The notes below the pieces were generated by a model. It did not search any database, was not told where the DNA came from, and saw only the letters and a list, made by a program, of their open reading frames with translations. A stretch of DNA of 64,000 bases, taken from Planctomycetota bacterium. GTDB lineage: Bacteria; Planctomycetota; E44-bin39. The DNA lies in NCBI GenBank assembly GCA_004376375.1, contig SOJX01000023.1:36013-100012 (forward strand), read 5' to 3'. A program made the position numbers and the translations under genes. Numbering within the stretch: the first letter of the stretch is position 1; each line of letters opens with the position of its first letter. Below, piece by piece: positions 3,135-57,200 of this stretch.

Positions 3135-3851
3135 TCAGGATTCCTTCGGGGTCTCGGTTTCCACTTTGCGGGTAAGGAATTGCTTCGCCAGAATAAGCAC
3201 CACTCCGGCGACGATGAAGACGTCCGCCGGGTTGAAGGTCGGCCAGTGCGCGCCCGCCGGCGTACCGCGGACTTTTATCAGCCAATCGGCAAGGCCGGTC
3301 CAGAACTCGACTGAGAAATCGAGAAAGTCGCGGACCGCGTGGTGGAACATCCTGTCCCAGAGGTTCGCCACCGCGCCCGCCCCGATAAGAGAAAGCCCGA
3401 TCTGGTACACGCGCTCGCCGCCCGAAAGCCGGCTCAGAATCCAGATTATCACGCCGACGGCGACAACCGTGAAAACAATCAGGAAAGCCACGTTGGGGAG
3501 CATCCCGAACATCGCACCCGGGTTGAAAGAGAGCTGGACTGTAAAAAACTTTCTGATAACAACACGCCTGGGCGGCCGGACATCTACAACCCGTACGGGC
3601 CACTCCCCGGGGACGAGGGCAACCGGGTGAAGCCCGCTCCCGTACTCTTTTTGAAACATTGATTCAAAGGCTTTGGTATTTTTAACGTAGCCTATCTTGA
3701 ACGGGTCCTCGACGTAGACTATTCGATGGGGAACCGACCGAAACGCCAGCCACTTGCTTCCGAGGTCGATGAAGATGCCCGTAACCACCAGCACGTAAAA
3801 CAACCAGTGCGCCCTGAAATGGCGTGCAAGTTTTATTCGCAACGCTTTCAC
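3135..3851 (-). CDS. lspA: lipoprotein signal peptidase II (LspA), insertion-bearing
   Basis: Conserved LspA motifs NPGAMFG, GAVANLWDR, VRDFLDF and HWPTFNPADVFI, including both catalytic Asp residues. A roughly 70-aa insertion lies between TM1 and the NPGA motif. GTG start overlaps the stop of the upstream paralog (GTGA). Confidence 0.8.
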   Translation of the reverse strand: MKALRIKLARHFRAHWLFYVLVVTGIFIDLGSKWLAFRSVPHRIVYVEDPFKIGYVKNTKAFESMFQKEYGSGLHPVALVPGEWPVRVVDVRPPRRVVIRKFFTVQLSFNPGAMFGMLPNVAFLIVFTVVAVGVIIWILSRLSGGERVYQIGLSLIGAGAVANLWDRMFHHAVRDFLDFSVEFWTGLADWLIKVRGTPAGAHWPTFNPADVFIVAGVVLILAKQFLTRKVETETPKES

Positions 3852-4915
3852 TCTGAAGCCTCCGGCGCCTCTGGTGTCTCCGGTGCCCCTGGTGTCTCCG
3901 GCGGCTCAGGCGGCTTCGGCTTGAGAATACGGGGAAACGGCTCAGGCCCGTCCGGTATTCCCGGCCCATCCGCCTCGCGAGCGGAAGGCGGCGAAAAATC
4001 ACCGTCAGACACTTCAGGACCGTCCCATGTCTGTATTATCTGTTCCCCTGCATCTCCGGCAGCGCCTGTGCCGGATTCCGGAACAGGAGATGTTCCATCC
4101 AACACGGGCTGCGGAACAGCACCACCGGCTTCCCCTTCCGCCGCCATGTGCCCTTCACCGCTTATGACCTGCTTGATAAAGACGGTGAACACCCCGACGC
4201 AGATAAAAATATCGGCCACGTTGAAGGTGGGCCAGTGGCTCTGCCCGATCCATTCCACGCTTTCGAGCCAATTCGCAAGGCCCGGCCAGAACCCTGCGTG
4301 AAAATCCAGGAAGTCGCGCACGGCGTGGAAGTTCAGCCTGTCCCACAGGTTCCCGATCGCGCCGGCGACGATAAGCCCGAGGCTTATATGCATGGCATAC
4401 TGGGTGGGCATTAGGAACTGATGCACGATCCCGAGCATTATGGCAACCGCGACCGATGTGAACAGGATTAGAAACGCGGCCTTTGTCGGGAAAATCCCGA
4501 ACATCGCACCCGGGTTGAACGAACAGCGGACGTTCAGGAAGCCGGGAATCACCGTCCGCATGACATTCTTCTCGTCAACTCCGTCGGGGATACCTGGAAA
4601 ACGGTTTGGTTCATTGCCCCGGGCAGGCACTACGTATGTTTTGCCATCTTCTTTCTTAAGCACATATTCGCGTTGCGGCGGGTCTATAATGCTGAAAACC
4701 AGCTTCTTCGTGCCTATATCGGCGACAATTCCAAAAACAATCACGAAGTAGAAAATCCAGTGAACACGTACGGAACGGGCCATGCGAACCGCAAGCGGAA
4801 GGGATTCTTCCCATTCGGCAGCGCCGTCAACCGTTGAAGGTGGCTCGGATGTGACATCTTCGTGAACAACCGAGTCCGGAGCCGCATTATCTCTCAGTTC
4901 CGGGTTCTCATCCAT
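3848..4915 (-). CDS. lspA: lipoprotein signal peptidase II paralog with acidic N-terminal extension and Pro/Glu-rich C-terminal tail
   Basis: Same motif set as the downstream paralog (NPGAMFG, GNLWDR, VRDFLDF, HWPTFNVADIFI). Extra roughly 45 aa at the N-terminus and a roughly 100-aa low-complexity tail (PEPPETPGAPETPEAPE). Confidence 0.75.
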   Translation of the reverse strand: MDENPELRDNAAPDSVVHEDVTSEPPSTVDGAAEWEESLPLAVRMARSVRVHWIFYFVIVFGIVADIGTKKLVFSIIDPPQREYVLKKEDGKTYVVPARGNEPNRFPGIPDGVDEKNVMRTVIPGFLNVRCSFNPGAMFGIFPTKAAFLILFTSVAVAIMLGIVHQFLMPTQYAMHISLGLIVAGAIGNLWDRLNFHAVRDFLDFHAGFWPGLANWLESVEWIGQSHWPTFNVADIFICVGVFTVFIKQVISGEGHMAAEGEAGGAVPQPVLDGTSPVPESGTGAAGDAGEQIIQTWDGPEVSDGDFSPPSAREADGPGIPDGPEPFPRILKPKPPEPPETPGAPETPEAPEASE

Positions 4916-5034
4916 CTAGTATCTTTTACGCAAATAAGGGGTTCGGGTTTCAAAATATATATATGGTGTTCAGATTATAGCCCGAATTTGCCGATAGCCA
5001 AACAGGATTTGAAGTTTTTTAAGCGTACCGGTGT

Positions 5035-5904
5035 ATGTGCACCGGTATGTCCGGGGAGCGGTTTATGGCTGCCGAAAGCATGGCAAGTCGAATCTTTGTG
5101 GCGCCGATACGGGACAGAATACTGTCGCCCATCGGCTCGTACGTTGGCCGCAGCGTCCACAGCGCCGGCTATACCATGCTTATGACCTGCGAGGCGATTA
5201 TCAAGATCCCGACCCTTCTGAACTGGCGCAATTTCTGCGAGTTCCTGAGGCAGTGCTACCTGGCGGGCATCCAGAGCCTCCCGGTCGTATTCCTCGTCGG
5301 GCTTTTCGTAGGCATGATCCTCTCACTCCAGAGCGGGCTCACGCTCATGCAGTTCGGGCTTGAGCGGTTCATAGCGGAAATCACCGGCGCGGCCTTAACC
5401 CGTGAAATGGGCCCGCTCATGACGGCTATTATTCTTACCGGCCGGGTCGGAAGCTCGATGGCGGCGGAGCTGGGAACCATGTCCGTCTCCGAGGAAATCG
5501 ACGCCCTGCGCATCATGTCGATCAACCCGGTACGCTTCCTCGTCCTCCCGCGGATACTGGCGACGGTAATCATGATGGTGGTCCTTACAGTTTTCGCCAT
5601 CCTGATCGGAATATTCGGCGGTGCATTAATCGGGCAGGCGCAAATCGGAGTATCTTACGACATGTTCTTCAAGGGCGCATTCGACGTAATTACCTACAAA
5701 GACCTTTATTCCGGGCTTACCAAGGCCGCGGTTTTCGGCCTGCTGATTTCGATGATTTCCTGCTCGGAAGGCCTGCGGACCACCGGCGGCGCCGAAGGCG
5801 TCGGACGTGGCACCAGGCGGGCGGTCGTGAACTGCCTGCTTTACATAATCATGTTCAATTACATCATGGACAGCTTTATATTCCTCTTCGTTTATGGACG
5901 CTAA
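5035..5904 (+). CDS. mlaE: ABC transporter permease, MlaE/YrbE family
   Basis: Multi-TM permease with the typical MlaE core (EIDALRIMSINPVRFLVLPR). The real start may be an internal Met at about 5065-5080. A hairpin (ACCGGTG-N6-CACCGGT) overlaps the annotated start. Confidence 0.85.
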   Translation: MCTGMSGERFMAAESMASRIFVAPIRDRILSPIGSYVGRSVHSAGYTMLMTCEAIIKIPTLLNWRNFCEFLRQCYLAGIQSLPVVFLVGLFVGMILSLQSGLTLMQFGLERFIAEITGAALTREMGPLMTAIILTGRVGSSMAAELGTMSVSEEIDALRIMSINPVRFLVLPRILATVIMMVVLTVFAILIGIFGGALIGQAQIGVSYDMFFKGAFDVITYKDLYSGLTKAAVFGLLISMISCSEGLRTTGGAEGVGRGTRRAVVNCLLYIIMFNYIMDSFIFLFVYGR

Positions 5905-6724
5905 CGGAAACATCGTCATAAGCTTCGAGAACGCGTACAAAACGCTTTCCGGGCGCAATGTGCTCGACGGCATGACGTTCGACGTCAGGCGCGGCGAGAC
6001 GTTCGTCATCATCGGACCTTCCGGGATGGGGAAATCGGTCACGCTCAAGCACATGGTCGGCCTGATGCGGCCGGACGACGGCGAAGTCATTATCAGCGAC
6101 GAAGGCGAAGGCGGGCGGGTGAGATACGACGTTTCCCATCTGAAACCAATCCAGCTCGAGCGGCTGCGCGCAATCTTCGGTTACCTTTTCCAGGACGGCG
6201 CCCTCCTCGCCTCGCTCACGGTAGGTGAAAACGTCGCGCTGCCTTTATTCGAGAGGCGATTGCACGTCTTCCGCGAAAAGTACGGCCGCAGAAACGCTGA
6301 AAATAAAATCTGGGAGCGGGTCAGGGAAAAGCTCGGCATGGTCGACATGGTGCACGCCATCGACAACCTGCCGGCCGAGCTCTCGGGCGGTATGAGGAAA
6401 CGCGCGGGACTCGCCCGCGCCATCATACACGAGCCGAAGATAATCCTTTACGACGAGCCGACAAGCGGACTCGACCCCGTGATGGGCACGAACATCAACC
6501 GGCTGATACGACACCTCCAGGAAAAGCTCGGTGTAACAAGCCTGGTCGTCACGCACGATATCGACAGCGCATACTACGTCGGAGACCGCATCGCCATGAT
6601 TAACAGGGGACGCATGGAGCAGATCGGAACGCCGGATGAAATAAAAAACACGACCAATCCCGTCGTAAGACAGTTTATCGAGGGGAATATCGAAGGCCCG
6701 CTTACCGCTGGAAGAAAGCACTAA
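5894..6724 (+). CDS. mlaF: ABC transporter ATP-binding protein, MlaF family
   Basis: Walker A GPSGMGKS, signature LSGGMRKR, Walker B ILYDEPTSGLD. Overlaps the mlaE stop. Confidence 0.9.
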   Translation: MDANGNIVISFENAYKTLSGRNVLDGMTFDVRRGETFVIIGPSGMGKSVTLKHMVGLMRPDDGEVIISDEGEGGRVRYDVSHLKPIQLERLRAIFGYLFQDGALLASLTVGENVALPLFERRLHVFREKYGRRNAENKIWERVREKLGMVDMVHAIDNLPAELSGGMRKRAGLARAIIHEPKIILYDEPTSGLDPVMGTNINRLIRHLQEKLGVTSLVVTHDIDSAYYVGDRIAMINRGRMEQIGTPDEIKNTTNPVVRQFIEGNIEGPLTAGRKH

Positions 6725-6763
6725 AAAAAGAAACAGGGAAACAAGAAAACAGGGGAATAAGTA

Positions 6764-7147
6764 GTGGGGAAAAGTTTTGAAGATCTTGAAGTATGGAAAC
6801 TGGCAAGGAAATTACGGGTGGACATCTATGACATTACGGAGAGCTTTCCATCACGCGAAAAGTATTCTCTTGTGAGTCAAATGCGACGGGCTGTACTCTC
6901 TGTTCCGGGCAATATAGCGGAAGGATACGGCAGATATCACTATAAGGAAAACATTCAGATGTGCAGGATTGCACGAGGCTCTTTGAACGAGTTGATTGAT
7001 TATTTATTCGCATCTGTGGATACAAAATACATTACTCAGGCGGTTTTCGAAACTCTTTACGCACAGGCAAGGGAAGTGGAAAAGGTTCTGAACGGATATA
7101 TAAAGTATTTGCAGAAACAGGCCGGCAAGGAAAAAGAGAAAGAATAA
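6764..7147 (+). CDS. four-helix-bundle protein (TIGR02436, 23S rRNA intervening-sequence protein family)
   Basis: MGKSFEDLEVWKLARKL...FPSREKYSLVSQMRRAVLSVPGNIAEG is characteristic of the family. Inserted between mlaF and mlaD and flanked by inverted AACAAGG/CCTTGTT tandem arms (6725-6760 and 7150-7200). Confidence 0.8.
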   Translation: MGKSFEDLEVWKLARKLRVDIYDITESFPSREKYSLVSQMRRAVLSVPGNIAEGYGRYHYKENIQMCRIARGSLNELIDYLFASVDTKYITQAVFETLYAQAREVEKVLNGYIKYLQKQAGKEKEKE

Positions 7148-7206
7148 GTTCTTTACCTGTTTCCTTGTTGTCTTGTTCCCTTGTTACCTGTTTGAGGACT
7201 ATTATC

Positions 7207-9051
7207 ATGGATGAAAAAAAGCAACAGGATGCGCCGAAAGACCAGGTCGCAATAAGGCGCTCTCAGACACGCCGCGTTAACGCGATTGTCGGCCTAATCA
7301 CCGCGATCGGCGTGGTGGCGCTCCTGTGGTTTACCGTTAGGGTCACCGACGCGACGTTCTTCAAGTCCGGCTACTGGATCAAGGTCCGCTTCGACGAAAT
7401 CATCGGCCTGCAGGAAGGCGACCTCGTGACCTTCTCCGGCATGGTGGTGGGAAAAGTAAAATACATCGATCTCGTGGAAGACAGGGGAAAAACGCGCATC
7501 CAGTTGACCTGCTTTATCGAAGACAAGACACGTAAAAACGTGAAGGGGGAAGAAGAAACCTACCCCATCTACATCCCGGACGATTCCGTTTTCGATATCC
7601 GCTCGTCCAGCCTGCTCGGCGGCGTTACGCTCGTAATCGACCGCGGACAGTCGAAAGTCCCTATTCCTGATACGCGGAATCCTGACAAAATAGAAAAGGA
7701 AGACATTCGAAACGGACTGACTCCAATCTCTCTTGTTAAAGAAATTGAAAGAACCGCGAAATCCGTCGGCGACCTTGCGACGGAAACCAAGCCGTATATA
7801 AAAAACACTCTGCAGAACGTGGAAAACATAACCAGGAATGCCGAGGAATACGTCAAGCGGATGAACGAAGGCCCCGGCCTCCTCCACGGGCTCGCATACG
7901 ACAAGGAAACCTATGTGAAACTACGGTCCACCGTCGATTCGCTCAACAAGTTCGTGGGCAAGCTCGGGGAAAAGACCTCGATAGTCGATAACCTGGACGC
8001 TTCAATCTATAACGTAAAAAAAATCACCGACAACTTTGCCGGCGGCGAAGGGTTTCTCCCCTACCTGATAAGCGACAGATCGAAACCGATGGTCGGCAAG
8101 GTCAATTCAATACTGGACAACGTGAGCATCTTCTCCGCCAGGCTCGCGGCCGACAACAGCTTTATCGCGAGAATACAGGGACCGGAAGGCGAAGCCCTCT
8201 TCCACGATATCAGCGAAATCATAGGGCGTGTGAGGGCCCTCACAAACAACATGGAAAACTCCTCGGTCCACATGCTCCTTTCGGACGAGGGCAAGCTCTA
8301 CGAGGATTTCAAGGATTTCGCGGAGTCGCTGCGGCTTCTGGGACGCCAGGTCACCGGCCGCGGTGTTCCGAAGGACGAGCGTAACTCGATCGCGAGGCTC
8401 CTCACCGACAAGGGCGAACTGTACGACGACGCCATGGTGGGCGTAAAAAGTCTGCGCAAGTTCATGGAGCCGCTTGCGAGGCTTAAAACGAACGTCATCG
8501 TAGGTCATCACTCCTACAACGGTCAGGAACTCGGCGTCACCAGGTTCGGCATCAAGCTGATACCGCGCAGGTCGCGCTACTTCCTCCTCGGCGGCTCCCT
8601 CATGAGCCCGGACAAGAACGGGCCGATAGTCTTCGACGAAGACGATAAGGATAACGGTAAGAGCATTATATTCATAGACCTGCAGGTCGCGCAGCACATC
8701 TGGCTCAACGAAGTCGAGAACAAGCCCGACGACTGGCGCAACGTCATCCTTACCGGCCGCGTTGGCCTTCTCGAAGGCAAGTTCGGCGCGGGCGTCGACC
8801 TCGATTTCTGCAAAAATCTCCGCCTGACAGTCGAGGCGCGCGACTCCCACACCGACCACAAGGACTTCGACGAAAACGTGGAAGGCACGCTCCTGCGCTC
8901 CGAAATTTCATTCAAATTCGCAAAGTACTTCCGCGTCCACGTCGGGGCAGACAACCTTATCGACGACCCAGACTGGTCATTCGGCTTTTCGGTCGAATTT
9001 GAAGACCCCGACATCCGCGCGCTCGTGGCCGTCGCAGGAACCGGGCAATAA
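7207..9051 (+). CDS. mlaD: MCE-domain protein, long MlaD-like with beta-rich C-terminal domain
   Basis: N-terminal TM helix plus MCE domain, a long helical middle, then a C-terminal roughly 170 aa with alternating amphipathic beta-strand patterns (IIFIDLQVAQ, LRLTVEAR, SFGFSVEFE). Start taken at ATG 7207 (MDEKKQQ) rather than the track start at 7165. Confidence 0.8.
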   Translation: MDEKKQQDAPKDQVAIRRSQTRRVNAIVGLITAIGVVALLWFTVRVTDATFFKSGYWIKVRFDEIIGLQEGDLVTFSGMVVGKVKYIDLVEDRGKTRIQLTCFIEDKTRKNVKGEEETYPIYIPDDSVFDIRSSSLLGGVTLVIDRGQSKVPIPDTRNPDKIEKEDIRNGLTPISLVKEIERTAKSVGDLATETKPYIKNTLQNVENITRNAEEYVKRMNEGPGLLHGLAYDKETYVKLRSTVDSLNKFVGKLGEKTSIVDNLDASIYNVKKITDNFAGGEGFLPYLISDRSKPMVGKVNSILDNVSIFSARLAADNSFIARIQGPEGEALFHDISEIIGRVRALTNNMENSSVHMLLSDEGKLYEDFKDFAESLRLLGRQVTGRGVPKDERNSIARLLTDKGELYDDAMVGVKSLRKFMEPLARLKTNVIVGHHSYNGQELGVTRFGIKLIPRRSRYFLLGGSLMSPDKNGPIVFDEDDKDNGKSIIFIDLQVAQHIWLNEVENKPDDWRNVILTGRVGLLEGKFGAGVDLDFCKNLRLTVEARDSHTDHKDFDENVEGTLLRSEISFKFAKYFRVHVGADNLIDDPDWSFGFSVEFEDPDIRALVAVAGTGQ

Positions 9052-45933: not shown

Positions 45934-47575
45934 TGACCGAAAGGCATTCACAGCAATCATGATTGCCGGCGCCGCCATCCGGGTGGTCATTGTCGTTCTC
46001 CCCTTTCACTACCTTATGCAGATTTTCCTCCCGGACGACGCTTACTACTATTTCGATATTGCACAAAACATCGCGGCCGGTAACGGCATCACATACGACG
46101 GGCTCGGGCCGACAAACGGGTTCCACCCCTTATGGCTTGCGATACTCGTACCAGTATTCGGAATTCTGCCAAAGCTCGCGGCGGTCCGGGTGGCGGTCGG
46201 GCTCTCGGCTCTGATCGACGTCTTCAACATAGCTCTCGTCGGACGCGCCGCCCGTCAGATAACCGGCAAACCCGCCGCCGCGAATATCGCGGCGTTTATC
46301 TACGCGATAAACGTACCGGTTATTCTGATAGTGATTAATGCGATGGAAAGCGCGCTCCTTGTCGCGTTCATGCTCGGCCTGCTCATCGCCTACCTGGCGT
46401 GGCGGGGGAACTGGACCCTGAAGCGTGCCGTTATCTTCGGGCTGATCGGAGGCGGGCTCATCCTCTCCCGCACGGACGGCGCGATATTCTTCGCAATCGT
46501 CCTGCTGGCCATCCTGATAAGGGAATCCGGGAAGAACCGGATTATGATTCCGGTCATCTCGGGCGTGCTTGCAACTGCCATCGTTGCGCCGTTTCTTATC
46601 TGGAACACGGTAAAGTTCGGAAGCCCGATGCAGGTCTCCGGCAAGGCAATACCGCTCGCCGTACACAGGGAACATAAAGTCCGTTCTGCAGAGCTCGCCG
46701 TACACAGGGAATTTGGTGTCCATCCTACAGAGCCCGGCGTGAAAGTAAGAAGCCCGATCTCCGAGGGAATAAAAAAGGCGCGCAACGCGTTCTTCTCGAA
46801 GATGTTCAGCCTGACCGGCCTGCGCAGGGGCGGCATCTGGCTTTCCGGAGTACTCTTAATCTTTTTTCTGATCATATATATTGTCCAGAAACGCGGAGGC
46901 AACCCTGAACCGACGCCATATTTCAGACACATTGCCGCACTCGGCCTTCCCATGCTCTTCATGCTGCTGCTGGCGGTGATTCACGGCGGTCTAAGATGGT
47001 TTATCATGACGTGGTACTTCGCGGGCGCGGCCGCGATATGGGCGATGTTCCTGGGAATCTCCGCCTACAACCTCCTGTATATAAAAGGCGAACCGCCGCG
47101 CTGGGCGGGGATCATCGCAAGCGTAATAATCGCCCTTCTCCCCGTCGTCGGGCTCGCGGCAAACCCGCCGAAGCTTATAGATGAAAATCCATCCTACGTG
47201 TTTCACAAATTCGTCAGAATACATGTGGACGACGTGCTTCGATCCCGCGACATTCCACCCGATACTCTCATCGGCGCGTTCAACAGCGGTATATTCCGCT
47301 TTTATTCCGATTACTCGTGCGTCAATCTCGACGGCGTGGTAAGCTACAACGCCTTTCGCGCCATTGAAAACAGGACTCTTGACAAGTACATCCGCGACAA
47401 CGAGATTAAATACATAGTCGACCGTAGTATAGATTTCGACCGTTACCGGGACGCGGCCGGTTTGAACATGAAAAGACTGAGGATGGTGCGTGAAATAGAA
47501 GTCGCCGAGAAACGAGACCACTGGACCAGGGAGATTATAAAGGTGAAGCTGGTGCTTTACGAGGTACTGCCGTGA
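45926..47575 (+). CDS. GT-C-fold membrane glycosyltransferase (DDAYYY-motif family)
   Basis: Polytopic membrane protein with a first-loop DDAYYYF motif typical of GT-C enzymes. Internal 17-bp direct repeat at 46650-46700. Confidence 0.6.
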
Positions 47576-48459
47576 GCGGGGAGTTCCTGAAAATCAGGGC
47601 AGGGAAGATGCGCGGATACCTGAATCCGGATTACGATTCGGATGATGTCCGCGAATTCCTCAAAAACCCCGACCGCGCGCTCGTGCGGGGCGCGGAGCTT
47701 CTGAAAGATTCTCCGACAACGACGGCGGCTTTCGTGAAAGTCGGCGTCGGCGGGACGGAGAAGGAATTCCACCTCAAGCGCGCAAACAACAAGGGGTTCC
47801 TCTACTCGCTTGAAAGTCTTGCGAAGAAATCCCGCCCCCTCAGGACGTATAAGAACATCATGAGACTCATGGCCGCGGACATCCCGACCCCGACCCCGGT
47901 CGCAGCGGTCGAGGAAAGGCGCTTTGGAATTCTGAAGCGCAGCTTCCTGATTACCGAGCGCATCACGGGCGGCGCGAACTTCTACTACTGGCTGAAGGCA
48001 AACTTCCGCAACCTGCCCGAGCTGGACAGAATCGCGACGACAAAAGGCTTCGCAGCCTTTGTCCGCAAAATCCACCTCGCCGGAATAACGCACGGCGACC
48101 TGAAATGCTCGAACGTTATTATCCTGCCGGAAGAGCGGCCGTTCAGGTTTTTCATAACCGACCTCGATGCGACACGTTTTTCCAAGAACGGCTGGCCGCT
48201 CGAAGCGGCCGTCACGGAGATCGCCCGGCTCTCGCTTTCGGCTTATGACACGGTTGACGCTGAAGACCGGGAGCGGTTTCTGAAATCGTATTTCGACGAC
48301 GCCTGCGACGCCGACGGGTGGGGCGAGAAAAACCGCTTCCGCCGAATGGCCGCGATTGTCATGAAAAAACACCTTGCACGCCAGCGGCGAAAGAAAAAGT
48401 ATCCCGAAGAATACTTCACCTACTTCGAAACCGGAGCGGGAAAGTGCCCGAGCGACTGA
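47572..48459 (+). CDS. lipopolysaccharide kinase (Kdo/WaaP) family protein
   Basis: Kinase catalytic loop HGDLKCSNVII and a DLD metal-binding region. Confidence 0.7.
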   Translation: MSGEFLKIRAGKMRGYLNPDYDSDDVREFLKNPDRALVRGAELLKDSPTTTAAFVKVGVGGTEKEFHLKRANNKGFLYSLESLAKKSRPLRTYKNIMRLMAADIPTPTPVAAVEERRFGILKRSFLITERITGGANFYYWLKANFRNLPELDRIATTKGFAAFVRKIHLAGITHGDLKCSNVIILPEERPFRFFITDLDATRFSKNGWPLEAAVTEIARLSLSAYDTVDAEDRERFLKSYFDDACDADGWGEKNRFRRMAAIVMKKHLARQRRKKKYPEEYFTYFETGAGKCPSD

Positions 48460-49118
48460 CACGCCGAAACCTCGAAGACCACGTCGAGCGCGTGCTCTGG
48501 AAAGGGCACGGGAGCCGCGCCGACGTGAAGCTCCTCAGGCTCGACGGCGTGCCGTACGTTGTGAAGGACTTCGCGGGCAAGCCGTGGTACACGACGGCGT
48601 TCCTCGGCCCGTGGCTTGTCTCGCGCGAATGCAGGATATACGGCGCGCTTTCCGGCGTCGAGGGCGTGCCGACGCTTATACGAAAAATCGACAGGCTCGC
48701 ATACGTCCTTCAGTACGTTGAAGGCATGCCGCTCAAGGAACACCGCTGGGCCGGACTGCTGCCCGACGAGCTCTACTTCTCTATCGAACGCACCGTGCGC
48801 GAACTCCACCGCCGCGGAGTCGTCCATTTCGACCTGCGCCAGAGACGTAATTACGTCGTAAGCGACGACGCCCGCCGCGCGTACCTTCTGGACTTCGGAA
48901 CAAGCGTGTACTTCGGCAAGAGCGGCATCGCCCGCGACATACTCGTGCCGATGTTCAAAGGCTCGGACCTGGGCGGGCTTCTGAAAATCAAGTGGCGGCT
49001 GTGGCCGCACCTCCTGACGGATGAGGACCGAAGGCAGATCAACCGCAAAAACTTCTGGCGGAAATTCTGGTTTTTCACCCCCACGAGAGAAGACGAATGG
49101 CACACGGCACCAAAGTAA
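48444..49118 (+). CDS. lipopolysaccharide kinase (Kdo/WaaP) family protein, second paralog
   Basis: VHFDLRQRRNYVV catalytic-loop-like segment and a DFG equivalent. Start set at an in-frame GTG overlapping the upstream stop. The track start at 48318 overlaps the previous gene. Confidence 0.6.
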   Translation: MPERLTRRNLEDHVERVLWKGHGSRADVKLLRLDGVPYVVKDFAGKPWYTTAFLGPWLVSRECRIYGALSGVEGVPTLIRKIDRLAYVLQYVEGMPLKEHRWAGLLPDELYFSIERTVRELHRRGVVHFDLRQRRNYVVSDDARRAYLLDFGTSVYFGKSGIARDILVPMFKGSDLGGLLKIKWRLWPHLLTDEDRRQINRKNFWRKFWFFTPTREDEWHTAPK

Positions 49119-49708
49119 TCTATTACGCCCGCAAGCTCGGCGTGTACATTATCATGCTCGTCCTGCTCGCGCTTGCGGTTTTCCAGACGCCGCGCATCGA
49201 CAGCTTCATCGTCGGCGCGGTACTGGCCGCCGTCGGGCTTGCCCTGCGCGTGTGGGCGTGCGGACACCTTTATAAAAACGAAAAACTCGCCTGCACGGGA
49301 CCGTACGCGCACCTGAAGCACCCGCTTTACCTGGGAACTTTTTTCATCGTCTTCGGCCTGCTCTCGCCGATGTTTTTCCATTTCGAAATGACTGCCGACA
49401 ACTTCTTCAAGTTTCCAACCTTCTACCTGGCGATTTTCTGCATCCTGGTTCTTATTATCGTCTACCTGCCCCGTAAGGCGCGCGACGAGCATGAGCGGCT
49501 TGTCAAGCGGTTCGGTGAGCCCTACGTCAAGTGGGACGAAAACGTGCCCAACTACTTCCCCCGCCTGCGCGGTTACGACATGGGCGACAAGGCGCGCTTC
49601 TCGTTCTCACAGATGTTTGTCAACAGCGAGCACTTGACCGTAGCCGCCGTCACGGTCGGATTTATCGTTATTGCCTTCCGCTGGTGGCAAGCACTTTTTA
49701 AGGGATAA
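49097..49708 (+). CDS. isoprenylcysteine carboxyl methyltransferase (ICMT/PEMT) family membrane methyltransferase
   Basis: Multi-TM protein with the C-terminal ICMT-like motif region (HLYKNEKLACTGPYAHLKHPLYLG). Confidence 0.65.
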   Translation: MAHGTKVIYYARKLGVYIIMLVLLALAVFQTPRIDSFIVGAVLAAVGLALRVWACGHLYKNEKLACTGPYAHLKHPLYLGTFFIVFGLLSPMFFHFEMTADNFFKFPTFYLAIFCILVLIIVYLPRKARDEHERLVKRFGEPYVKWDENVPNYFPRLRGYDMGDKARFSFSQMFVNSEHLTVAAVTVGFIVIAFRWWQALFKG

Positions 49709-49888
49709 GGGATAGGGGATAAGGGATAAGGGACAAGTAATAACGAGCTTCGCGCGTTATTAAACAGAAATTCTTCCATATATACACATTCCTGAATTGC
49801 CAAAACAGATACCCGCTACTGAGATTAGGTATTTTATCGGGTATTATATGCCGTTATCGCATTTTTTAGGCAATTATTCATTTTCCAT

Positions 49889-49916
49889 TTGACAATATCT
49901 CAATTATGCGTATAAT
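49889..49916 (+). promoter_or_regulatory. sigma-70-like promoter upstream of the first YfbK-like VWA gene (TTGACA-16-TATAAT)
   Basis: Sits in a 260-bp AT-rich intergenic region. Confidence 0.5.
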
Positions 49917-49971
49917 CCTGATAGAAAGCCTGCGATGTTCAAATTATCGAATTCAAAAAAGGAGAAGTGTT

Positions 49972-51945
49972 ATGACAGCAGGAAAAAAGGAAATCGAGAG
50001 CATTTTCAACAGTAAAGGGAAGCGCAGGTGGATTGGATCATCAGGTGTTTTTCTTTTCTCCATCGGGTTTCACGCCCTTGTTTTGCTCGTCGCAGCGGGA
50101 ATCACGTTCTGCCTGGCGGTGAAGAAAAAGGATATAACTTTTTCTATCAAACGTGAAACCAAGGTGCAGGAGTACGACCCCGAACTCGTGCGCGATATTT
50201 TCAAAAGGCCGAGAGTCCTCGCCGACAGGATTGTAGAAAGACCGATCATAATGCTTGAAGATGAAATCGAAATCACAAAAGACATCCCGCTTGGGACCAG
50301 CTTCGACAGCCTGTCCAACAAACACCTTGAATCCGACTCGATTATCGATGCTTATGGAAGCATCGGCGGCGCTTCCGGCGCCTACGGAGAAAAGGCGCCT
50401 GGCGGAAGTAGTTATTGCATGTGCTGGGGTGCTTGCGGCAGTTGTTCAGCAGAATCAGCCAAAACGCCTGAGGAAAAAGGTCCGCACGCGATTTTCTATC
50501 TGGACAACGGGGAGAATCCGTTCATCGACGCGAGCTGGGACCGCCTCTCCACCTTCGCCATAGACGTTGACACGGCGTCATACACGATAGCGAGAGACTA
50601 TATTAAGAAAGGCGAACTCCCGCCGAAAAAAACCGTCCGCATCGAAGAATTCATTAACTACATGAATTACGAATACACATCCCCCTGGAACAATAATTTT
50701 GCCATCCACCTCGAAGCCGCGCCGTCGAAGTTCGGGAGGGAAGATGCGCACAAACTCCTCAGGGTTGCCATCAAGGGAATGGACCTGACTTCGAGCGAGC
50801 GCAAACCGGCTGTGCTTACGTTCGTCATCGACGTATCGCAGTCGATGAGCGAGGAAAACCGGCTGGTGCTTGTCAAGAAATCGCTCAAACTTCTTCTGGA
50901 CCAGTTGATGGACGGCGACAAGGTCGGGATTGTTATTTACAGCACCGAGGCGACACTTATTACGGAACCGCTTCCGATATCCGAGCGCGAGAAGCTTGTG
51001 AGCGCGATCGAGAGCCTCCAGATCGACTACTGGACCAACCTCGATGCCGGGCTGATGCTGGGTTACGAAATCGCGGAAAGGCATTTCCAGAGGCATGCGA
51101 CCAACCGCATAATCCTCTGCTCCGACGGTGTGCCCACCAGGGGGGAAACTTCTGCGGAAAAAATCCTGGAGAAGGCGAAAAAGTATATCGAAAAAGGAAT
51201 CAACATCTCAACCATAGGTATCGGGACGGGCCACGACGACGAGTTTATGGAAAAACTTGCCGACAAGGGTAACGGAAACTACGTCTACCTGGATACCTGC
51301 AAAGAGGCAGAACGCCTCTTTGCCGACTGCGCGGTCGGCCTTCTGGAGGTTCTCGGCAGCGATATGAAAGTGCAGGTCGATTTCAATCCCGACGTTGTCG
51401 ACTCTTACCGCCTGCTCGGTTACGAGAACCGGAAGATCGCGGACAAGGATTTCAGGAACGATAAAGTCGACGCGGGCGAGATCGGGCCCGGGCATTCCGT
51501 TACCGCGCTCTACGAGCTGAAGCTGCATGACGACGTTGCGGAAGGCATCGTCGCCACCGTTTTCGTCCGCTACAAAGACCCCGAATACCAGGATGAGGTA
51601 AAGGAAATCAAGCAGAGTTTTCCGCTTGCGAGCATAAGGGAGACATTCGAAGACGCCTCGGCCGATTTCCGCCTCGCCGCGGCGACCGCCGAGCTCGCCG
51701 AGGTCCTGAAAGACAGCTTCTTCGCGCGGGAATCCGACCTCGAGCCGGTGGTGGAGCTCACCGAATACCTTGCACACGAGATGTACGACAGGGAAGACGT
51801 TCAGGACCTGGCCAAGCTTGTCAAGAAAGCAAGAGAGGTCCGGACGGATAAGGTTCAAAAGCGCGTCGCTCTTGAGAGAAGCGAAGATAACGTCAGCAGA
51901 ATACCACGCGACAAAAGCGCGATAATAGTCGGCATACCCCGATAA
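49972..51945 (+). CDS. von Willebrand factor A domain protein, YfbK-like (N-terminal TM, VWA, DUF3520-like C-terminus)
   Basis: MIDAS motif DVSQSMS, VWA fold, and a conserved C-terminal domain. Start at ATG 49972 downstream of a TTGACA-16-TATAAT promoter. Confidence 0.8.
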   Translation: MTAGKKEIESIFNSKGKRRWIGSSGVFLFSIGFHALVLLVAAGITFCLAVKKKDITFSIKRETKVQEYDPELVRDIFKRPRVLADRIVERPIIMLEDEIEITKDIPLGTSFDSLSNKHLESDSIIDAYGSIGGASGAYGEKAPGGSSYCMCWGACGSCSAESAKTPEEKGPHAIFYLDNGENPFIDASWDRLSTFAIDVDTASYTIARDYIKKGELPPKKTVRIEEFINYMNYEYTSPWNNNFAIHLEAAPSKFGREDAHKLLRVAIKGMDLTSSERKPAVLTFVIDVSQSMSEENRLVLVKKSLKLLLDQLMDGDKVGIVIYSTEATLITEPLPISEREKLVSAIESLQIDYWTNLDAGLMLGYEIAERHFQRHATNRIILCSDGVPTRGETSAEKILEKAKKYIEKGINISTIGIGTGHDDEFMEKLADKGNGNYVYLDTCKEAERLFADCAVGLLEVLGSDMKVQVDFNPDVVDSYRLLGYENRKIADKDFRNDKVDAGEIGPGHSVTALYELKLHDDVAEGIVATVFVRYKDPEYQDEVKEIKQSFPLASIRETFEDASADFRLAAATAELAEVLKDSFFARESDLEPVVELTEYLAHEMYDREDVQDLAKLVKKAREVRTDKVQKRVALERSEDNVSRIPRDKSAIIVGIPR

Positions 51946-52025
51946 TCAGCCGATTATCCGGCATACAGTCTATGCAGAACTGAAGATTGGACTCAGATTA
52001 TGTTGTTATAAAAAGGAGAAGTGTT

Positions 52026-54017
52026 GTGAAAGAAGGAAAAAGGGAAATTGAAACCAACGCTCTCAGTCAATGTATTCAAAACCGGCTTGGATCGTCGGGT
52101 ATATTCTTTTTCTCTCTCGGGCTCCATGGTTTTCTGATCCTCATTGCCACGGGAATCACTCTCTTTCTGGTTGAAAAGGAAAAAGACATAACACTGACGT
52201 TCAAACGCGAAGCCAGAGAAGAGCAATATGACCCAGAGATCGCGCGCTGGATTTTCAAAACGCCGAGAATCCTCGCAAACCGAATAATTGAAAAACCCAT
52301 ATTAATTTTCGAAGAAGAAGTCGAAATTTCAAGGGACATTACGCGAGGAACAAGTTTCGACAGTCTGGCAAATAAAAACATTAACGCCAGGTCAATTATT
52401 GACGCCTATGGAATGGGAGGAAAAGCAGCCGGCGTTTACGGCCAGCGCTGGGGTAAAGGAGGCGTTATATTATGCGAAGGAGGGTCTCCCGGCAGCTGCG
52501 CATGCTGCATAGGCGGTTGCACGGGTTCACTCGCGCATCCTGAAGACGAAGGGCGAAGCGCCATATTCTTTCTCGACAGCGGCGAAAACCCGTTTATCGA
52601 TACCAGTTGGGACCACCTCTCCACTTTCGCTATAGACGTCGACACTGCCTCATACACGATGGCGAGAAGCTATATTGAAAAAGGCGAACTCCCACCCAAG
52701 AAATCCATCCGCATTGAAGAGTTCATTAACTACATGAACTATGAATACACTTCTCCCTGGAGCGACGTGATAGCGATCCACCTCGAGGCCGCGCCTTCGA
52801 AATTCGGCAGGGAAGACGCGCACAAGCTGATGCGAGTCGCCGTAAAAGGGCTGGAGGCGAATATGGCTGACCGCCGGAACGCTGTTCTCACATATGTTAT
52901 TGACATTTCCGGCTCAATGTCCAGCGCAAACCGCCTGCCGTTAGTAAAGAAATCGCTCAAGCTGCTTCTTGAGCAGTTGACGGACGGCGACAAGGTCGGA
53001 ATTATCGTATACAGTGACGATGCAAAAGTCGTCACCGAACCGCTGCCGATAGCGGAACGCGAGAAGCTAATCAAAACCATCGACAGCCTCGAGACTGAAG
53101 GGTCTACCAACGTAGAGGCTGGGTTGATGCTTGGTTATGAAATGGCGGACAGGCATTTCCGGAAACATGCAATAAACCGCATTATTCTGTGCTCCGACGG
53201 CATCGCCAACACGGGGGAAACGTCTGCGGAAAAAATCCTCCAAAAGGTGAAAACCTACAAGGAGAAAGGCATCTATATTTCAACAATAGGTTTTGGCATC
53301 GATCATAACGACGATCTGATGGAAAAACTGGCTGACAAGGCAGACGGTGTTTACGCGTATATCGATACACCGGACGAGGCAACACGCCTTTTCGTTAACA
53401 ATACAATGGGCATTATGGGCGTCCTCGCGAAGGACATGAAAGTGCAGGTGGACTTCAATCCCGACGTTGTCGACTCTTACCGCCTGCTCGGTTACGAGAA
53501 CCGGAAGATCGCGGACAAGGATTTCAGGAACGATAAAGTCGACGCGGGCGAGATCGGGCCCGGGCATTCCGTTACCGCGCTCTACGAGCTGAAGCTGCAT
53601 GACGACGTTGCGGAAGGCATCGTCGCCACCGTTTTCGTCCGCTACAAAGACCCCGAATACCAGGATGAGGTAAAGGAAATCAAGCAGAGTTTTCCGCTTG
53701 CGAGCATAAGGGAGACATTCGAAGACGCCTCGGCCGATTTCCGCCTCGCCGCGGCGACCGCCGAGCTCGCCGAGGTTCTGAAGGACAGCTTCTTCGCGCG
53801 GGAATCCGATCTCGAGCCTGTGGTGGAGCTTACCGAATACCTTGCACACGAGATGTACGACCGGGAAGAAGTCAAGGAGCTTGCCGGGTTGGTAAAGAAA
53901 GCAAGGAATATCCGGCAGAAGACCATGCAAAAGCGCGTCGCTCTTGAGAGAAGCGAAGACAACGTCAGCAGAATACCGCGCGACAAAAGCGCGGTCATAG
54001 TCGGCCTGCCGAGATAA
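52026..54017 (+). CDS. von Willebrand factor A domain protein, YfbK-like, tandem paralog
   Basis: MIDAS DISGSMS. The C-terminal roughly 175 codons are nearly identical at the DNA level to the upstream paralog (53448-53773 matches 51375-51700). GTG start at 52026. Confidence 0.8.
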   Translation: MKEGKREIETNALSQCIQNRLGSSGIFFFSLGLHGFLILIATGITLFLVEKEKDITLTFKREAREEQYDPEIARWIFKTPRILANRIIEKPILIFEEEVEISRDITRGTSFDSLANKNINARSIIDAYGMGGKAAGVYGQRWGKGGVILCEGGSPGSCACCIGGCTGSLAHPEDEGRSAIFFLDSGENPFIDTSWDHLSTFAIDVDTASYTMARSYIEKGELPPKKSIRIEEFINYMNYEYTSPWSDVIAIHLEAAPSKFGREDAHKLMRVAVKGLEANMADRRNAVLTYVIDISGSMSSANRLPLVKKSLKLLLEQLTDGDKVGIIVYSDDAKVVTEPLPIAEREKLIKTIDSLETEGSTNVEAGLMLGYEMADRHFRKHAINRIILCSDGIANTGETSAEKILQKVKTYKEKGIYISTIGFGIDHNDDLMEKLADKADGVYAYIDTPDEATRLFVNNTMGIMGVLAKDMKVQVDFNPDVVDSYRLLGYENRKIADKDFRNDKVDAGEIGPGHSVTALYELKLHDDVAEGIVATVFVRYKDPEYQDEVKEIKQSFPLASIRETFEDASADFRLAAATAELAEVLKDSFFARESDLEPVVELTEYLAHEMYDREEVKELAGLVKKARNIRQKTMQKRVALERSEDNVSRIPRDKSAVIVGLPR

Positions 54018-54159
54018 AGTATGAAGTATAAAGTATGAAGGATGAAAACAAGAAATACTGAAGTCATTTTGACTTCGGATTGCGGATTGAGAATTAATGT
54101 CAACAGGGGCGCGGCACGCCGCGCCCCTGCAATCCTATTTGTCAATTAATGGACAGCAG

Positions 54160-54963
54160 CTATCTCGGGCCGCCGCCTCCGCGGTCTCCGCCGCCGCCGC
54201 GGTTTCCACCGCCGCCGCGACCGCCACGGCTACTGCGACCGCGTCTGCCGCCGAACATTCCACCCATACCTCCACGACCGCCTTGATTCATTTCCTTGAA
54301 TTTATCATACTGGTCCGGGGTAAGAATTTCCTGCATGGCCAGGTCCATATCCTCGCGTGCCTTCTCCATTAGCGCTCTTCTTTCTTCGCGGGTCATTTGC
54401 TCGTCCTGGTTTCTATTACTCCATATCTCCCGCATCTTCTTACTCATTTCATCCGTGATAGCCTTGACCTTTGCCTTCTGGTCATCGTCCAGTCCCAGGC
54501 GCTCCGCCATCCTGTCGGCGCTGCTGCTGCGATGCCTGTTCATCATGCCGCGCATCAGTTTCTCGGGATTCTTCTGAATCTCCTCTATCACTTTCTCAGC
54601 GAGAGAGGTGGAGCCTTCGCCGTCTCCCGAGTCTGATGCAAGGCCTGACCTTATGTCCTGAATTCCCTCCATCCTGTCTTCCAGACTCGCAACCCGCTCC
54701 TGGAGAGTGTCCACTTTGCCGCCCAGCTTACCGTCAATTTTCGCCAGCGGCCTGTCCGGCTTCATAAGCGCCTTTCTTTCCATCGCCTCGAACCTTGCCT
54801 GATAGTCGCTCTCGAGGTTCTTGATCTTGGCCTCCAGCTTGGCGATCTTCGCGGTATCGCCGGAAGTGCCGGCCTTCTCCTTGCCTGCAGTCGAGATAAA
54901 GGCAATGCCGCCTCCGACTACAGCTGCAATAATAAGGGTCAATACGATTTGTGATGCTTTCAT
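54160..54963 (-). CDS. periplasmic Spy/CpxP-like protein with coiled-coil and Gly/Arg-rich tail
   Basis: Signal/TM at the N-terminus, an LTPDQ (LTxxQ-like) motif, and a C-terminal GGRGGGGNRGGGGDRGGGG tail. Start overlaps the kinase stop. Confidence 0.5.
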   Translation of the reverse strand: MKASQIVLTLIIAAVVGGGIAFISTAGKEKAGTSGDTAKIAKLEAKIKNLESDYQARFEAMERKALMKPDRPLAKIDGKLGGKVDTLQERVASLEDRMEGIQDIRSGLASDSGDGEGSTSLAEKVIEEIQKNPEKLMRGMMNRHRSSSADRMAERLGLDDDQKAKVKAITDEMSKKMREIWSNRNQDEQMTREERRALMEKAREDMDLAMQEILTPDQYDKFKEMNQGGRGGMGGMFGGRRGRSSRGGRGGGGNRGGGGDRGGGGPR

Positions 54964-57116
54964 TTCTCCTCCTTTGTTTTAGGAATATCGGTTTTCCCTT
55001 CTCCGTTTTTCTGCATTCCTTCCAGTCTGTTTCCGCGGTGCACCCCGGGCGGACGCCCGTGTCCGCGCCCGTCTCTGCGGCCCCACCTTCCTCCCCTGGG
55101 GGGAAACATCATACGACGAAAGTCCGGGATTTCCCTGAGGAATTCATCCGCCTCTTCGGGTGTCATATGTTCAAGAAGCTTCGTACGTGTATCCCCGAGC
55201 ATTTCCTGGAGATTCTTACTTCTTTCCCGCCAGTCGTCGGGCGAGTTCTCCGATTGAAAACCCTGGCTGAACACCTTCTCGATACTTTTCACGTGTTCGC
55301 TGAAGACTGCTTTTGCAGCCTCGAGTTTTGTGGAATCCCAGTCGTTTTCCACGGCATACTCGACGATCCTGTCGTCGATTCTCCGGGCAAGCACCTTTAT
55401 GCTTTCCATTATCATTTTGGAGCGTCTTTCACTTTCCTGCTGGCGTCTTTCGGCTTCGCGCTCTTTCAGCGTTTCATCCAAAAGCTGTTTCATCTCTTCT
55501 TTTTTCTTTTTGTCCGTCGTTTTATCGACAACGGGCTTCACGTTATTGAAGACGCTCATCAGGACAGATACCGCGATTACAATCAGTACAACCACGACCA
55601 CGCTGACGGCGGCAATCCACGGGGCGGTTTTCCTGGACGGCTCGACCGGAATAAACTGCGGCACCGATTCCGGAGCGGGCCGTACCGGTTTGGGCACCTC
55701 CGGCACAAACATGTATTTTGCGAGCGCCTCCCTTTCGGCAAACGCGAGAAACACCTTTCTCATGTCCGCTATCAGTTCCGTAACGTCCGGGTAACGCTCG
55801 TCAGGATTCTTTTCCATCATCCTGTAGACGATACGGCATACTTCCGGCGGAATATTGTCGGCCAGCGAATCCAGCGGCGGCGGCGGCGCCTTGGAGTGCT
55901 TTTCATGAAGCTCGGTAAACGAGTCGCCGACAAACGGGGGCCTGCCCGCAAGCATGTGGTAGAAGGTCGCGCCCAGGGAATATATATCGCTCCTTGCGTC
56001 AAGGCGCTCCCCCTCGAACTGCTCGGGCGACATGTACGAAGGAGTCCCGAGCACCGTTCCGGCCGCCGTGACCGCCATATCGGGCGAGGCTTCCCCGCCT
56101 TCAGTATCCGCCTCCGGCAACTCCATCTCGCCCTTGGCGAGGCCGAAATCCGTAACCTTTATCTCGCCGGTCCCGGTAATCATTATGTTGTCGGGCTTCA
56201 GGTCGCGGTGAATCAGTTTCTTCGCGTGCGCCGCTTCGAGGCCCTTTGCGGCGCCCTCGATAATAAGCAGCGCCTGCTCCGAAGAAAACCTGCCTTCCTC
56301 TTTCAGGACTTCGCCGACGCTCTTGCCCTCGATCAGCTGCATTACGATGTAGGAATAGCCGTCTTCCTCACCGGCGTCGTGGACTACGACGACGTTCGGG
56401 TGCTCGAGGCTCGCGGCTGCGCGCGCCTCTCTGAGAAACCGCTGCTTATGGACCTCGCTTATAAGGGCGGGGGTCATAATCTTGACCGCCACCATCTTGC
56501 TCAGGGTAATGTGCCTTGCCCTGTAAACGGCGCCCATGCCGCCTTCGCCGATTTTCTCGATAACCTCGCATGGACCAATCTGCTTTCCGATAAAGCGGGC
56601 ATCAAGGTCCGCCATCGCGTCGGCCATCTCCGGGCTGATGGTTCCCGCAGTCCCCGTGAGTGCCTGGCGGCGCGCCAGAATCTCCTTGAGCCTGCGGCCC
56701 AGGCCCTTGTTCTTTTCCCTCTCCTGCAGGTTCAGGGCGCCCCATACTTCCGCATAGGTAACCTGTTTCTTTTGGGCGGCGTCAAGGCCGAATGCCAGGT
56801 CCGCGAGCAGGTCTTTTTCGCCCTCACCGGACAGCGATTCTTTATAGAGTTTCAGCAGGTTGCCGAGCTGCCTGTCCCGCACGTATTTTCTTTTTGAAAA
56901 CTCTACTGCCAGGGAATGCAGCACGCCCTCAAATTTTTGTGAATCAAGACATTCGAGCAATTGATCCTTGGATATCATTCCTTCCTGGACTGCCGTCGTC
57001 CTCAGGAAAACTTCGGACGTGGTCTCATTTTCCGGATCTTCCAGGCTTATGCCCTCCGAGAGGGCATGCTCCAGCATTTTATCGCTCGTGTCAGATGTAA
57101 AATAATCATCCTGCAT
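54960..57116 (-). CDS. Hanks-type serine/threonine protein kinase, membrane-anchored
   Basis: GEGGMGAVYRA glycine loop, VAVK, HRDLKPDNIM, DFGLA. One TM helix after the kinase domain, then a coiled-coil C-terminal region. ATG 57116 is preferred over TTG 57128. Confidence 0.9.
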   Translation of the reverse strand: MQDDYFTSDTSDKMLEHALSEGISLEDPENETTSEVFLRTTAVQEGMISKDQLLECLDSQKFEGVLHSLAVEFSKRKYVRDRQLGNLLKLYKESLSGEGEKDLLADLAFGLDAAQKKQVTYAEVWGALNLQEREKNKGLGRRLKEILARRQALTGTAGTISPEMADAMADLDARFIGKQIGPCEVIEKIGEGGMGAVYRARHITLSKMVAVKIMTPALISEVHKQRFLREARAAASLEHPNVVVVHDAGEEDGYSYIVMQLIEGKSVGEVLKEEGRFSSEQALLIIEGAAKGLEAAHAKKLIHRDLKPDNIMITGTGEIKVTDFGLAKGEMELPEADTEGGEASPDMAVTAAGTVLGTPSYMSPEQFEGERLDARSDIYSLGATFYHMLAGRPPFVGDSFTELHEKHSKAPPPPLDSLADNIPPEVCRIVYRMMEKNPDERYPDVTELIADMRKVFLAFAEREALAKYMFVPEVPKPVRPAPESVPQFIPVEPSRKTAPWIAAVSVVVVVLIVIAVSVLMSVFNNVKPVVDKTTDKKKKEEMKQLLDETLKEREAERRQQESERRSKMIMESIKVLARRIDDRIVEYAVENDWDSTKLEAAKAVFSEHVKSIEKVFSQGFQSENSPDDWRERSKNLQEMLGDTRTKLLEHMTPEEADEFLREIPDFRRMMFPPRGGRWGRRDGRGHGRPPGVHRGNRLEGMQKNGEGKTDIPKTKEEK

Positions 57117-57200
57117 TTGCCGCCTCAACTCTCTACCTCTATATAGCGAAAAAGGGGGGAACTCCGACAGGAAAAGAAGATTTTTCGGCTTTTATAACCC

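Follow-up and report, generated by a model that had tools for sequence, protein, structure and literature searches.

Two tandem genes for YfbK-like VWA proteins, gene A and gene B, occupy positions 49972 to 54017 of the window, by which the whole analysed stretch of 64,000 nucleotides (nt) is meant (contig SOJX01000023.1 of assembly GCA_004376375.1, positions 36,013 to 100,012 of the forward strand, from a Planctomycetota bacterium of GTDB lineage E44-bin39). The genes share an internal block of 323 nt without a single mismatch, while the synonymous sites outside the block are saturated. Judged from the aligned sequences, interlocus gene conversion is very probably the best explanation of this identity. 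Conversion is preferred to crossover or recent duplication because the identical patch is internal and is bordered by diverged sequence on both sides. The features that carry the argument are as follows, in window coordinates.

49972..51945, + strand: gene A, open reading frame (ORF) with ATG start, 657 aa, YfbK-like VWA protein (TET38493.1)
52026..54017, + strand: gene B, ORF with GTG start, 663 aa, YfbK-like paralog (TET38494.1)
51283..51357, + strand: 5' divergence island at the VWA/YfbK_C junction, 32/75 mismatches, 57% identity, sharp upstream edge of the tract
51358..51795, + strand: extended low-divergence tract, corresponding to 53430-53867 in B, 97.5% identity, synonymous divergence (dS) 0.10
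51382..51704, + strand: identical block, copy 1 (gene A), 0/323 mismatches against copy 2
53454..53776, + strand: identical block, copy 2 (gene B), B residues 477-584, most of the YfbK_C beta-sandwich and the first following helix
51796..51860, + strand: 3' divergence island, corresponding to 53868-53932 in B, 22/65 mismatches, many of them non-synonymous, 66% identity
51861..51942, + strand: terminal segment, corresponding to 53933-54014 in B, 8/82 mismatches, 90% identity

The two ORFs lie in tandem on the same strand, the start codon of B standing 80 nt past the stop codon of A. Their products have consecutive NCBI accessions on one 139,246-bp contig of the Planctomycetota metagenome-assembled genome (MAG).

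Divergence profile of the two genes

A and B were compared by codon alignment. In the 5' part (49972-51357 against 52026-53429) nucleotide identity is 68.7%, with a non-synonymous divergence (dN) of 0.27 and a dS of 1.31. The ratio dN/dS in the 5' parts is 0.16-0.30, so that the VWA and N-terminal regions, which an earlier model reading of the DNA letters (the sequence-only reading) had described as diversifying, have merely diverged under purifying selection. Behind the 5' divergence island, 5 of the 24 positions of 51358-51381 are mismatched, and the identical block follows. Its two copies are offset by 2072 and are the only copies found in the window by BLAST. Downstream of the block, 51705-51795 holds 6 mismatches in 91 positions, five of them at third codon positions, and the tract is then closed by the 3' divergence island, which sits inside the last long helix of the protein. 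The terminal 82 nt encode a C-terminal extension that is common to A and B and absent from paralog C, a further YfbK-like gene of the same genome; this segment is possibly a separate tract of greater age. The dS values are 0 for the 323-nt block and 0.45 for the 3' tail. Synonymous divergence is not uniformly low, the outcome that would have pointed to a simple recent duplication, and a dS of 1.3 in the 5' two-thirds of the genes rules out a uniform recent duplication. Unequal crossover was also rejected, as it would leave the copies alike all the way to one side of the breakpoint, and the patch is internal.

The longest identical run, 323 nt, compares with a maximum of 59 nt in 10,000 permutations of the codon columns. 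At positions where the two proteins have the same residue, 107 of 108 codons agree within the block, compared with 156 of 278 in the 5' part (P ~8e-28). Within the tract, the contrast between 0/323 and 6/91 mismatches is significant as well (Fisher p = 1e-4). The low-divergence tract at 51358-51795 is probably the trace of an older, larger conversion. The sequence alignment suggests that conversion probably occurred repeatedly, leaving nested tracts of different ages, because of the contrast between 0/323 and 6/91 and the 90% identity of the terminal segment.

These data narrow the account given by the sequence-only reading. Its identity of more than 300 bp is confirmed at 323 nt, with the second of its ranges off by one base and two mismatches within 51375-51381, which it had included. 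Identity does not run on with few changes to the stop codons, being interrupted by the 65-nt island with its 22 mismatches. Homogenisation by conversion is retained for the beta-sandwich and first helices only, not for the C-terminal domain as a whole up to the stop. The word "ongoing" would find its basis in the nested tracts, which speak for recurrence.

GC content at third codon positions (GC3) is 0.77 in the block and 0.56-0.65 in the 5' parts. GC-biased conversion is only suggested by this rise, because paralog C also has a higher GC3 in the equivalent region (0.84 against 0.79).

At the sites of the block that are informative among A, B and C, the patterns are 90:0:0 in favour of A=B, against about 1:1:1 in several 5' segments. 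At 50130-50319 (A residues ~54-116) A has more sites in common with C (30) than with B (25), and at 50320-50472 and 51100-51356 the three A/B/C site patterns are about equal. These patterns hint at an older mosaic history among A, B and C, or at saturation.

Weighing of the conversion reading and its alternatives

Several observations weigh against conversion as the explanation. No orthologous A/B pairs were found in any collection searched, and the best homologue outside the genome is only 49% identical. The gene that acted as donor is indistinguishable from the recipient, and with dS saturated outside the block the age contrast is only qualitative. Two further short-read assemblies from this population are interrupted within block copy A, and the central 73 nt of that copy (51533-51605) are attested by the window assembly only. 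A search of 5.8 billion proteins gave no match between 57% (a paralog from the same genome) and 100% identity; a single-protein scan of genome contigs returned no close relatives, and the best hit of a metagenome-contig scan was a 43% match.

The interrupted assemblies and the 73 nt attested only once bear on the possibility of an assembly artefact, in which similar copies were collapsed or bubble-popped into one consensus that was threaded twice, or in which the 5' part of A was misjoined. The window sequence does come from a MAG, and the full-length A protein is on record from one contig only, B from two. The assemblies available for comparison are GCA_030588815.1 (JAUUWX contigs) and that of Joint Genome Institute (JGI) sample 3300022538 (Ga0247413_1530761), and their contigs end or start as follows.

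51434..51606: assembly break zone in block copy 1; JAUUWX010000082.1 ends at 51434, Ga0247413_1530761 ends at 51532, JAUUWX010000032.1 starts at 51606

These ends speak for an exact repeat that is real, since an assembler stops at k-mers of genuine ambiguity. Contigs are expected to break at such a place if the repeat is exact and exceeds the k-mer or read length, whereas copies that differed would have supplied unique k-mers to carry the assembly through. Two independent contigs carry A-specific 5' sequence on into the block, for 53 and 151 nt. Altogether the A-specific flanks reach 151 nt (left) and 99 nt (right) into the block, and 249 of these 250 positions equal copy B. Contig JAUUWX010000032.1 starts with 99 nt of the block, continues through the distinct tail of A and the spacer, and holds the whole of B with the block copy of that gene; it is 100% identical to the window from 51606 onward. 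By itself it proves that intact B is preceded by the 3' end of a second gene, whose tail has diverged. A graph of the form U-R-M-R-D has a single Eulerian path, which is the tandem arrangement. Over 12.4 kb the JGI contig differs from the window at one position, 51467 (T to G), which puts Gly in place of the Val that the family conserves in NDKVDAGE. That the variant lies in the block could be counted for the artefact, and it could be a single-nucleotide polymorphism (SNP) specific to copy A, a difference between strains or an error at the contig end. Block copy A appears to have been assembled from its own reads, because this only difference of the JGI contig falls in the block. Even a few hidden SNPs would leave an identity above 98% against a background of 69%, and conversion would still be required. 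An assembly artefact is consequently considered improbable.

Segmental replacement by another route, either a double crossover with another strain or an unassembled paralog, or a chimera formed by unequal crossover and re-duplication, is very improbable. The genome (MAG GCA_030588815.1) does offer at least four YfbK-like paralogs, A and B included, and the near-equal A/B/C site patterns in several 5' segments suggest a complex mosaic history. The two additional paralogs are the following.

L007 395-2494: paralog C, TET35387.1, 699 aa, anchored by a transmembrane (TM) helix like A and B, with a long Pro-rich insert
L010 6001-7698: paralog D, TET32727.1, 565 aa, with a lipoprotein-like signal (judged by eye)

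Paralog C has a nucleotide identity of 72-73% across the block, with a dS of 0.91-0.96, and paralog D of 70%. At only 73% and 70%, C and D were rejected as donors and likewise lend no support to a replacement from within the known paralogs. The identical copies of A and B, in contrast, lie 2 kb apart, and each is the simplest donor for the other. Unequal crossover, moreover, homogenises one whole side and not an internal patch.

Selection at the nucleotide level is barely credible, whether its target were an RNA embedded in the block, an internal regulatory element or the antisense ORFs of 216 aa at 51208-51858 and 53280-53930: these long ORFs do cover both block copies and the minus strand of the block has a terminator-like hairpin, but no Rfam match was obtained in the block even at E <= 1, the ORFs are a codon-aligned shadow frame whose stops need the rare sense codons TTA, CTA and TCA, terminator-like matches are only modestly in excess (11 against 6.2 +/- 2.6 expected from shuffling), and synonymous sites vary freely in the same region of paralogs C and D and of six other tandem pairs. 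As shadow ORFs, the antisense frames were ruled out as real genes. We know of no constraint that holds 323 nt invariant at every third position.

The tandem pairs used for this comparison come from a profile scan of GTDB species representatives, which gave 79 loci (86 with the other loci gathered), seven of them with same-strand tandem YfbK-like pairs. Identity is uniformly ~60% in six tandem pairs from other phyla and 63-78% in the region that corresponds to the block; their longest identical runs measure 11-31 nt. In the genomes of three Poribacteria, copies a and b each follow an orthologous lineage of their own. The six pairs and the Poribacteria a/b orthologues together rule out a nucleotide conservation intrinsic to the family.

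One further tandem pair, at 3365-5395 and 5715-7610 of locus L046 (Poribacteria chromosome OZ244829.1), has a mosaic divergence of its own. Its core has 96% amino acid identity, and in windows of 60 codons dS varies there between 0.07 and 0.45; its N-terminal linker is 59% identical with a dS of 0.5-1.1. The pair is possibly a second case of conversion in the YfbK-like family, to judge by these windows.

Proteins, gene starts and neighbouring genes

Both products match the three Pfam domains of the family well above the gathering cut-offs of 25 (PF12450), 23.8 (PF00092) and 25 (PF12034, YfbK_C, formerly DUF3520). The scores in this order are 88.7, 71.8 and 128.3 bits for A and 85.3, 72.5 and 133.3 bits for B. 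As vWF_A, VWA and YfbK_C thus occur in order and above threshold, A and B belong to the YfbK-like family, and the tandem paralogs of one architecture and about 660 aa that the sequence-only reading had recognised are borne out at 657 and 663 aa with all three domains. The two different motifs it had named for the metal-ion-dependent adhesion site (MIDAS), DVSQSMS and DISGSMS, are both present (VIDVSQSMS with DVSQS in A, VIDISGSMS with DISGS in B). The site is intact (DxSxS, T, D), the T of TN(L/V)(D/E)AG and the D of LCSDG being invariant columns of the family alignment. Both genes appear functional from their sequences, because they are intact, keep the MIDAS and have a dN/dS of 0.16-0.30.

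An AlphaFold model of B has a mean pLDDT of 72.7, with values above 80 over most of residues 190-640. It predicts an N-terminal TM helix, a disordered linker with a Cys-rich patch (residues 51-187), a vWF_A N-domain (198-275), the VWA domain (286-464), a beta-sandwich (468-557) and three helices (570-648). Gene A encodes the same series of N-terminal TM anchor, disordered Cys-containing linker, vWF_A N-domain, VWA and YfbK_C. In A and B only about 22 residues precede the TM helix on the cytoplasmic side, and from this topology the proteins are probably membrane-anchored and face the periplasm. The Cys-rich patches of the linkers differ, being SSYCMCWGACGSCS in A (~50440-50480) and ILCEGGSPGSCACCIGGCTGS in B (52490-52560), and neither is present in paralog C; they may be metal-binding or disulfide motifs.

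The best Foldseek matches of the B model are 8s05, 5a8j, 6fpy and 4fx5 (E 1e-17 to 1e-19). The nearest solved folds are ArnB/VWA2 of Sulfolobus, which is Sec23/24-core-like, inter-alpha-inhibitor heavy chain 1 and a VWA protein of Catenulispora. The succession of a VWA domain, a beta-sandwich and helices seen in A and B occurs also in ArnB/VWA2 and the inter-alpha-inhibitor heavy chain; at 15-17% identity and TM-scores of 0.3-0.5 the resemblance is one of fold only and transfers no function. YfbK of Escherichia coli has the same three-domain core (PF12450, VWA, PF12034). Unlike the E. coli YfbK family, A, B and C have no lipoprotein signal but an N-terminal TM helix followed by a disordered linker of ~140 residues. 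To our knowledge, the function of the YfbK family has not been established experimentally.

The duplicated unit extends from about 33 nt 5' of the start codons through the stop codons. In the comparison of A with B, no homology was found 3' of the two stop codons. The elements in front of gene A are the following.

49889..49916, + strand: sigma-70-type consensus promoter upstream of gene A, TTGACA and TATAAT with a 16-nt spacer, 12/12
49939..49971, + strand: leader and ribosome binding site (RBS; AAAAAGGAGAAGTGTT) of gene A, homologous to 51993-52025 before gene B

No promoter site comparable to that at 49889-49916 was found before gene B. A and B are probably co-transcribed from the single promoter, because of this lack and because B begins 80 nt past the stop of A. 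The NCBI start of TET38493.1 is the ATG at 49906 (679 aa), which the promoter overlaps. The start of gene A was taken as 49972 because of the RBS, the homology with the start of B and the promoter-like site over the ATG at 49906, and the annotated start is by the same sequence features probably 22 codons too long.

A tandem repeat of a heptamer (GGGATAA-like, ~5 units) at 49699-49733 lies partly over the 3' end of a gene for a 203-aa membrane protein (stop 49708) and extends into the spacer before the promoter of gene A. Upstream of gene A, the region 47572-49118 holds two consecutive kinase-like genes, which are followed by the 203-aa multi-TM protein. The gene at 47572-48459 is a Kdo/WaaP-family kinase, and its end is overlapped by that of a 224-266-aa protein without Pfam matches.

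On the other side of the pair lies a cluster on the minus strand.

57950-57201, - strand: extracytoplasmic function (ECF) sigma factor
57128-54960, - strand: Ser/Thr kinase
54963-54160, - strand: 267-aa protein with sub-threshold LTXXQ and DUF4890 matches only

The sequence-only reading had placed the pair directly upstream, on the opposite strand, of an ECF sigma, kinase and Spy-like operon. The cluster and its strand stand. Its orientation (57950-54160, minus) is convergent with the A-B pair, tail to tail at the 3' end of B, and "Spy-like" corresponds to nothing above threshold. The 267-aa protein has a long Gly/Arg-rich C-terminal tail (GGRGGMGG...GGGGDRGGGGPR), and the kinase (54960-57128, minus) a C-terminal RG-rich stretch. 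The 142-nt spacer between the convergent ends contains a GC-rich hairpin of 11-12 bp (54104-54129) and an AT-richer one (54060-54076), which are plausible terminators of the two transcription units, and also a weak Rfam match to STnc40 (E 0.43), probably due to chance.

A functional tie between the ECF-kinase neighbourhood and A/B is an unproven matter of context. No conserved link to an ECF-kinase operon was seen around the homologues P0004 and P0014, which are single-copy genes in unrelated neighbourhoods. Paralog D lies directly downstream of genes for an ECF sigma, a zf-HC2 anti-sigma factor and a 172-aa protein. In anti-sigma factors of the ECF289 type, a VWA domain is fused to DUF3520 (Casas-Pastor et al. 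2021, PMC7826278). A and B resemble this type in the extracytoplasmic VWA-DUF3520 module and the nearby ECF sigma gene, but they have no match to an anti-sigma domain (zf-HC2, RskA), and the neighbouring ECF operon is kinase-associated and on the opposite strand. An identity of A and B as ECF289-type anti-sigma factors was ruled out on the lack of a cytoplasmic anti-sigma domain and on the ECF gene not being co-directional. Neither A nor B matched a PADLOC defence model; the neighbouring kinase matches the PD-T4-6 kinase models of PADLOC, probably through generic kinase homology.

Mechanism and significance

A and B are tandem paralogs from an old duplication, as the saturated synonymous sites outside the block indicate. 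Homologous recombination between misaligned copies, either intrachromosomal or between sister chromosomes and presumably RecA-dependent, would have replaced an internal segment of one gene without crossover. The latest tract would be at least 323 nt long (51382-51704, equal to 53454-53776) and would lie inside an older tract of ~440 nt (51358-51795), and a further segment at the extreme 3' end would have been homogenised in part. The flanking islands of 57-66% identity would block heteroduplex extension. We infer the recombination mechanism, the number of events and the neutral or selected nature of the homogenisation from the alignment.

The YfbK_C beta-sandwich and the first helices, over which the tract extends, are the part best conserved in the family. 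Homogenisation as a neutral, self-reinforcing by-product of local similarity is favoured. Such a process would suffice because the tract lies at the most conserved part and is fenced by islands of low identity, as extension of a homology-dependent heteroduplex would give. Alternatively, selection may keep the beta-sandwich/helix module identical, for a shared partner or a hetero-oligomer, while the diverged VWA/MIDAS regions and Cys-rich linkers bind different ligands; this appears unlikely. If it were true, the pair would be a case of two sensors with one adaptor, recurrent conversion would be a mechanism of co-evolution, and the proteins might feed the neighbouring ECF-kinase pathway.

Conversion between bacterial paralogs is known from tufA/tufB in Salmonella and from babA/babB and sabA/sabB in Helicobacter pylori. 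As in known bacterial interlocus conversion, a non-reciprocal segment is homogenised in A and B, synonymous sites are erased, the borders are diverged and the genes are intact. The present case differs in the tract, which is only 0.3-0.45 kb long in genes otherwise synonymously saturated, and in being known from sequence alone. Variation of the cassette type, antigenic or phase-related as in pilE/pilS, was rejected, as each gene copy is a full-length ORF that has an RBS of its own and keeps its motifs intact, and the window holds only two copies of the block. In TLR1/TLR6, conversion is reportedly confined to one part of the gene. Gene conversion is reported to limit the divergence of these tandem paralogs in mammals (PMC2077338). 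That pair is eukaryotic and its shared partner TLR2 is known, whereas A and B are bacterial. Gene conversion between paralogs is the subject of a prokaryote-wide survey (PMC6053082), and gene conversion hotspots that of work on Mycobacterium tuberculosis (PMC12046097, PMC13061034).

The process itself is well known, and no new mechanism or system is described; what is new is its occurrence in the YfbK-like family and in this uncultured Planctomycetota lineage. The pair provides a clean and statistically unambiguous short internal conversion tract between old tandem paralogs. It also calls for caution in the assembly and annotation of MAGs, since the repeat breaks two other assemblies of the population and hides one gene, and in phylogenies of YfbK/DUF3520 proteins, where mosaic paralogs would mislead trees. 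For the family, it indicates that constraint in these widespread proteins is strongest in the YfbK_C beta-sandwich.

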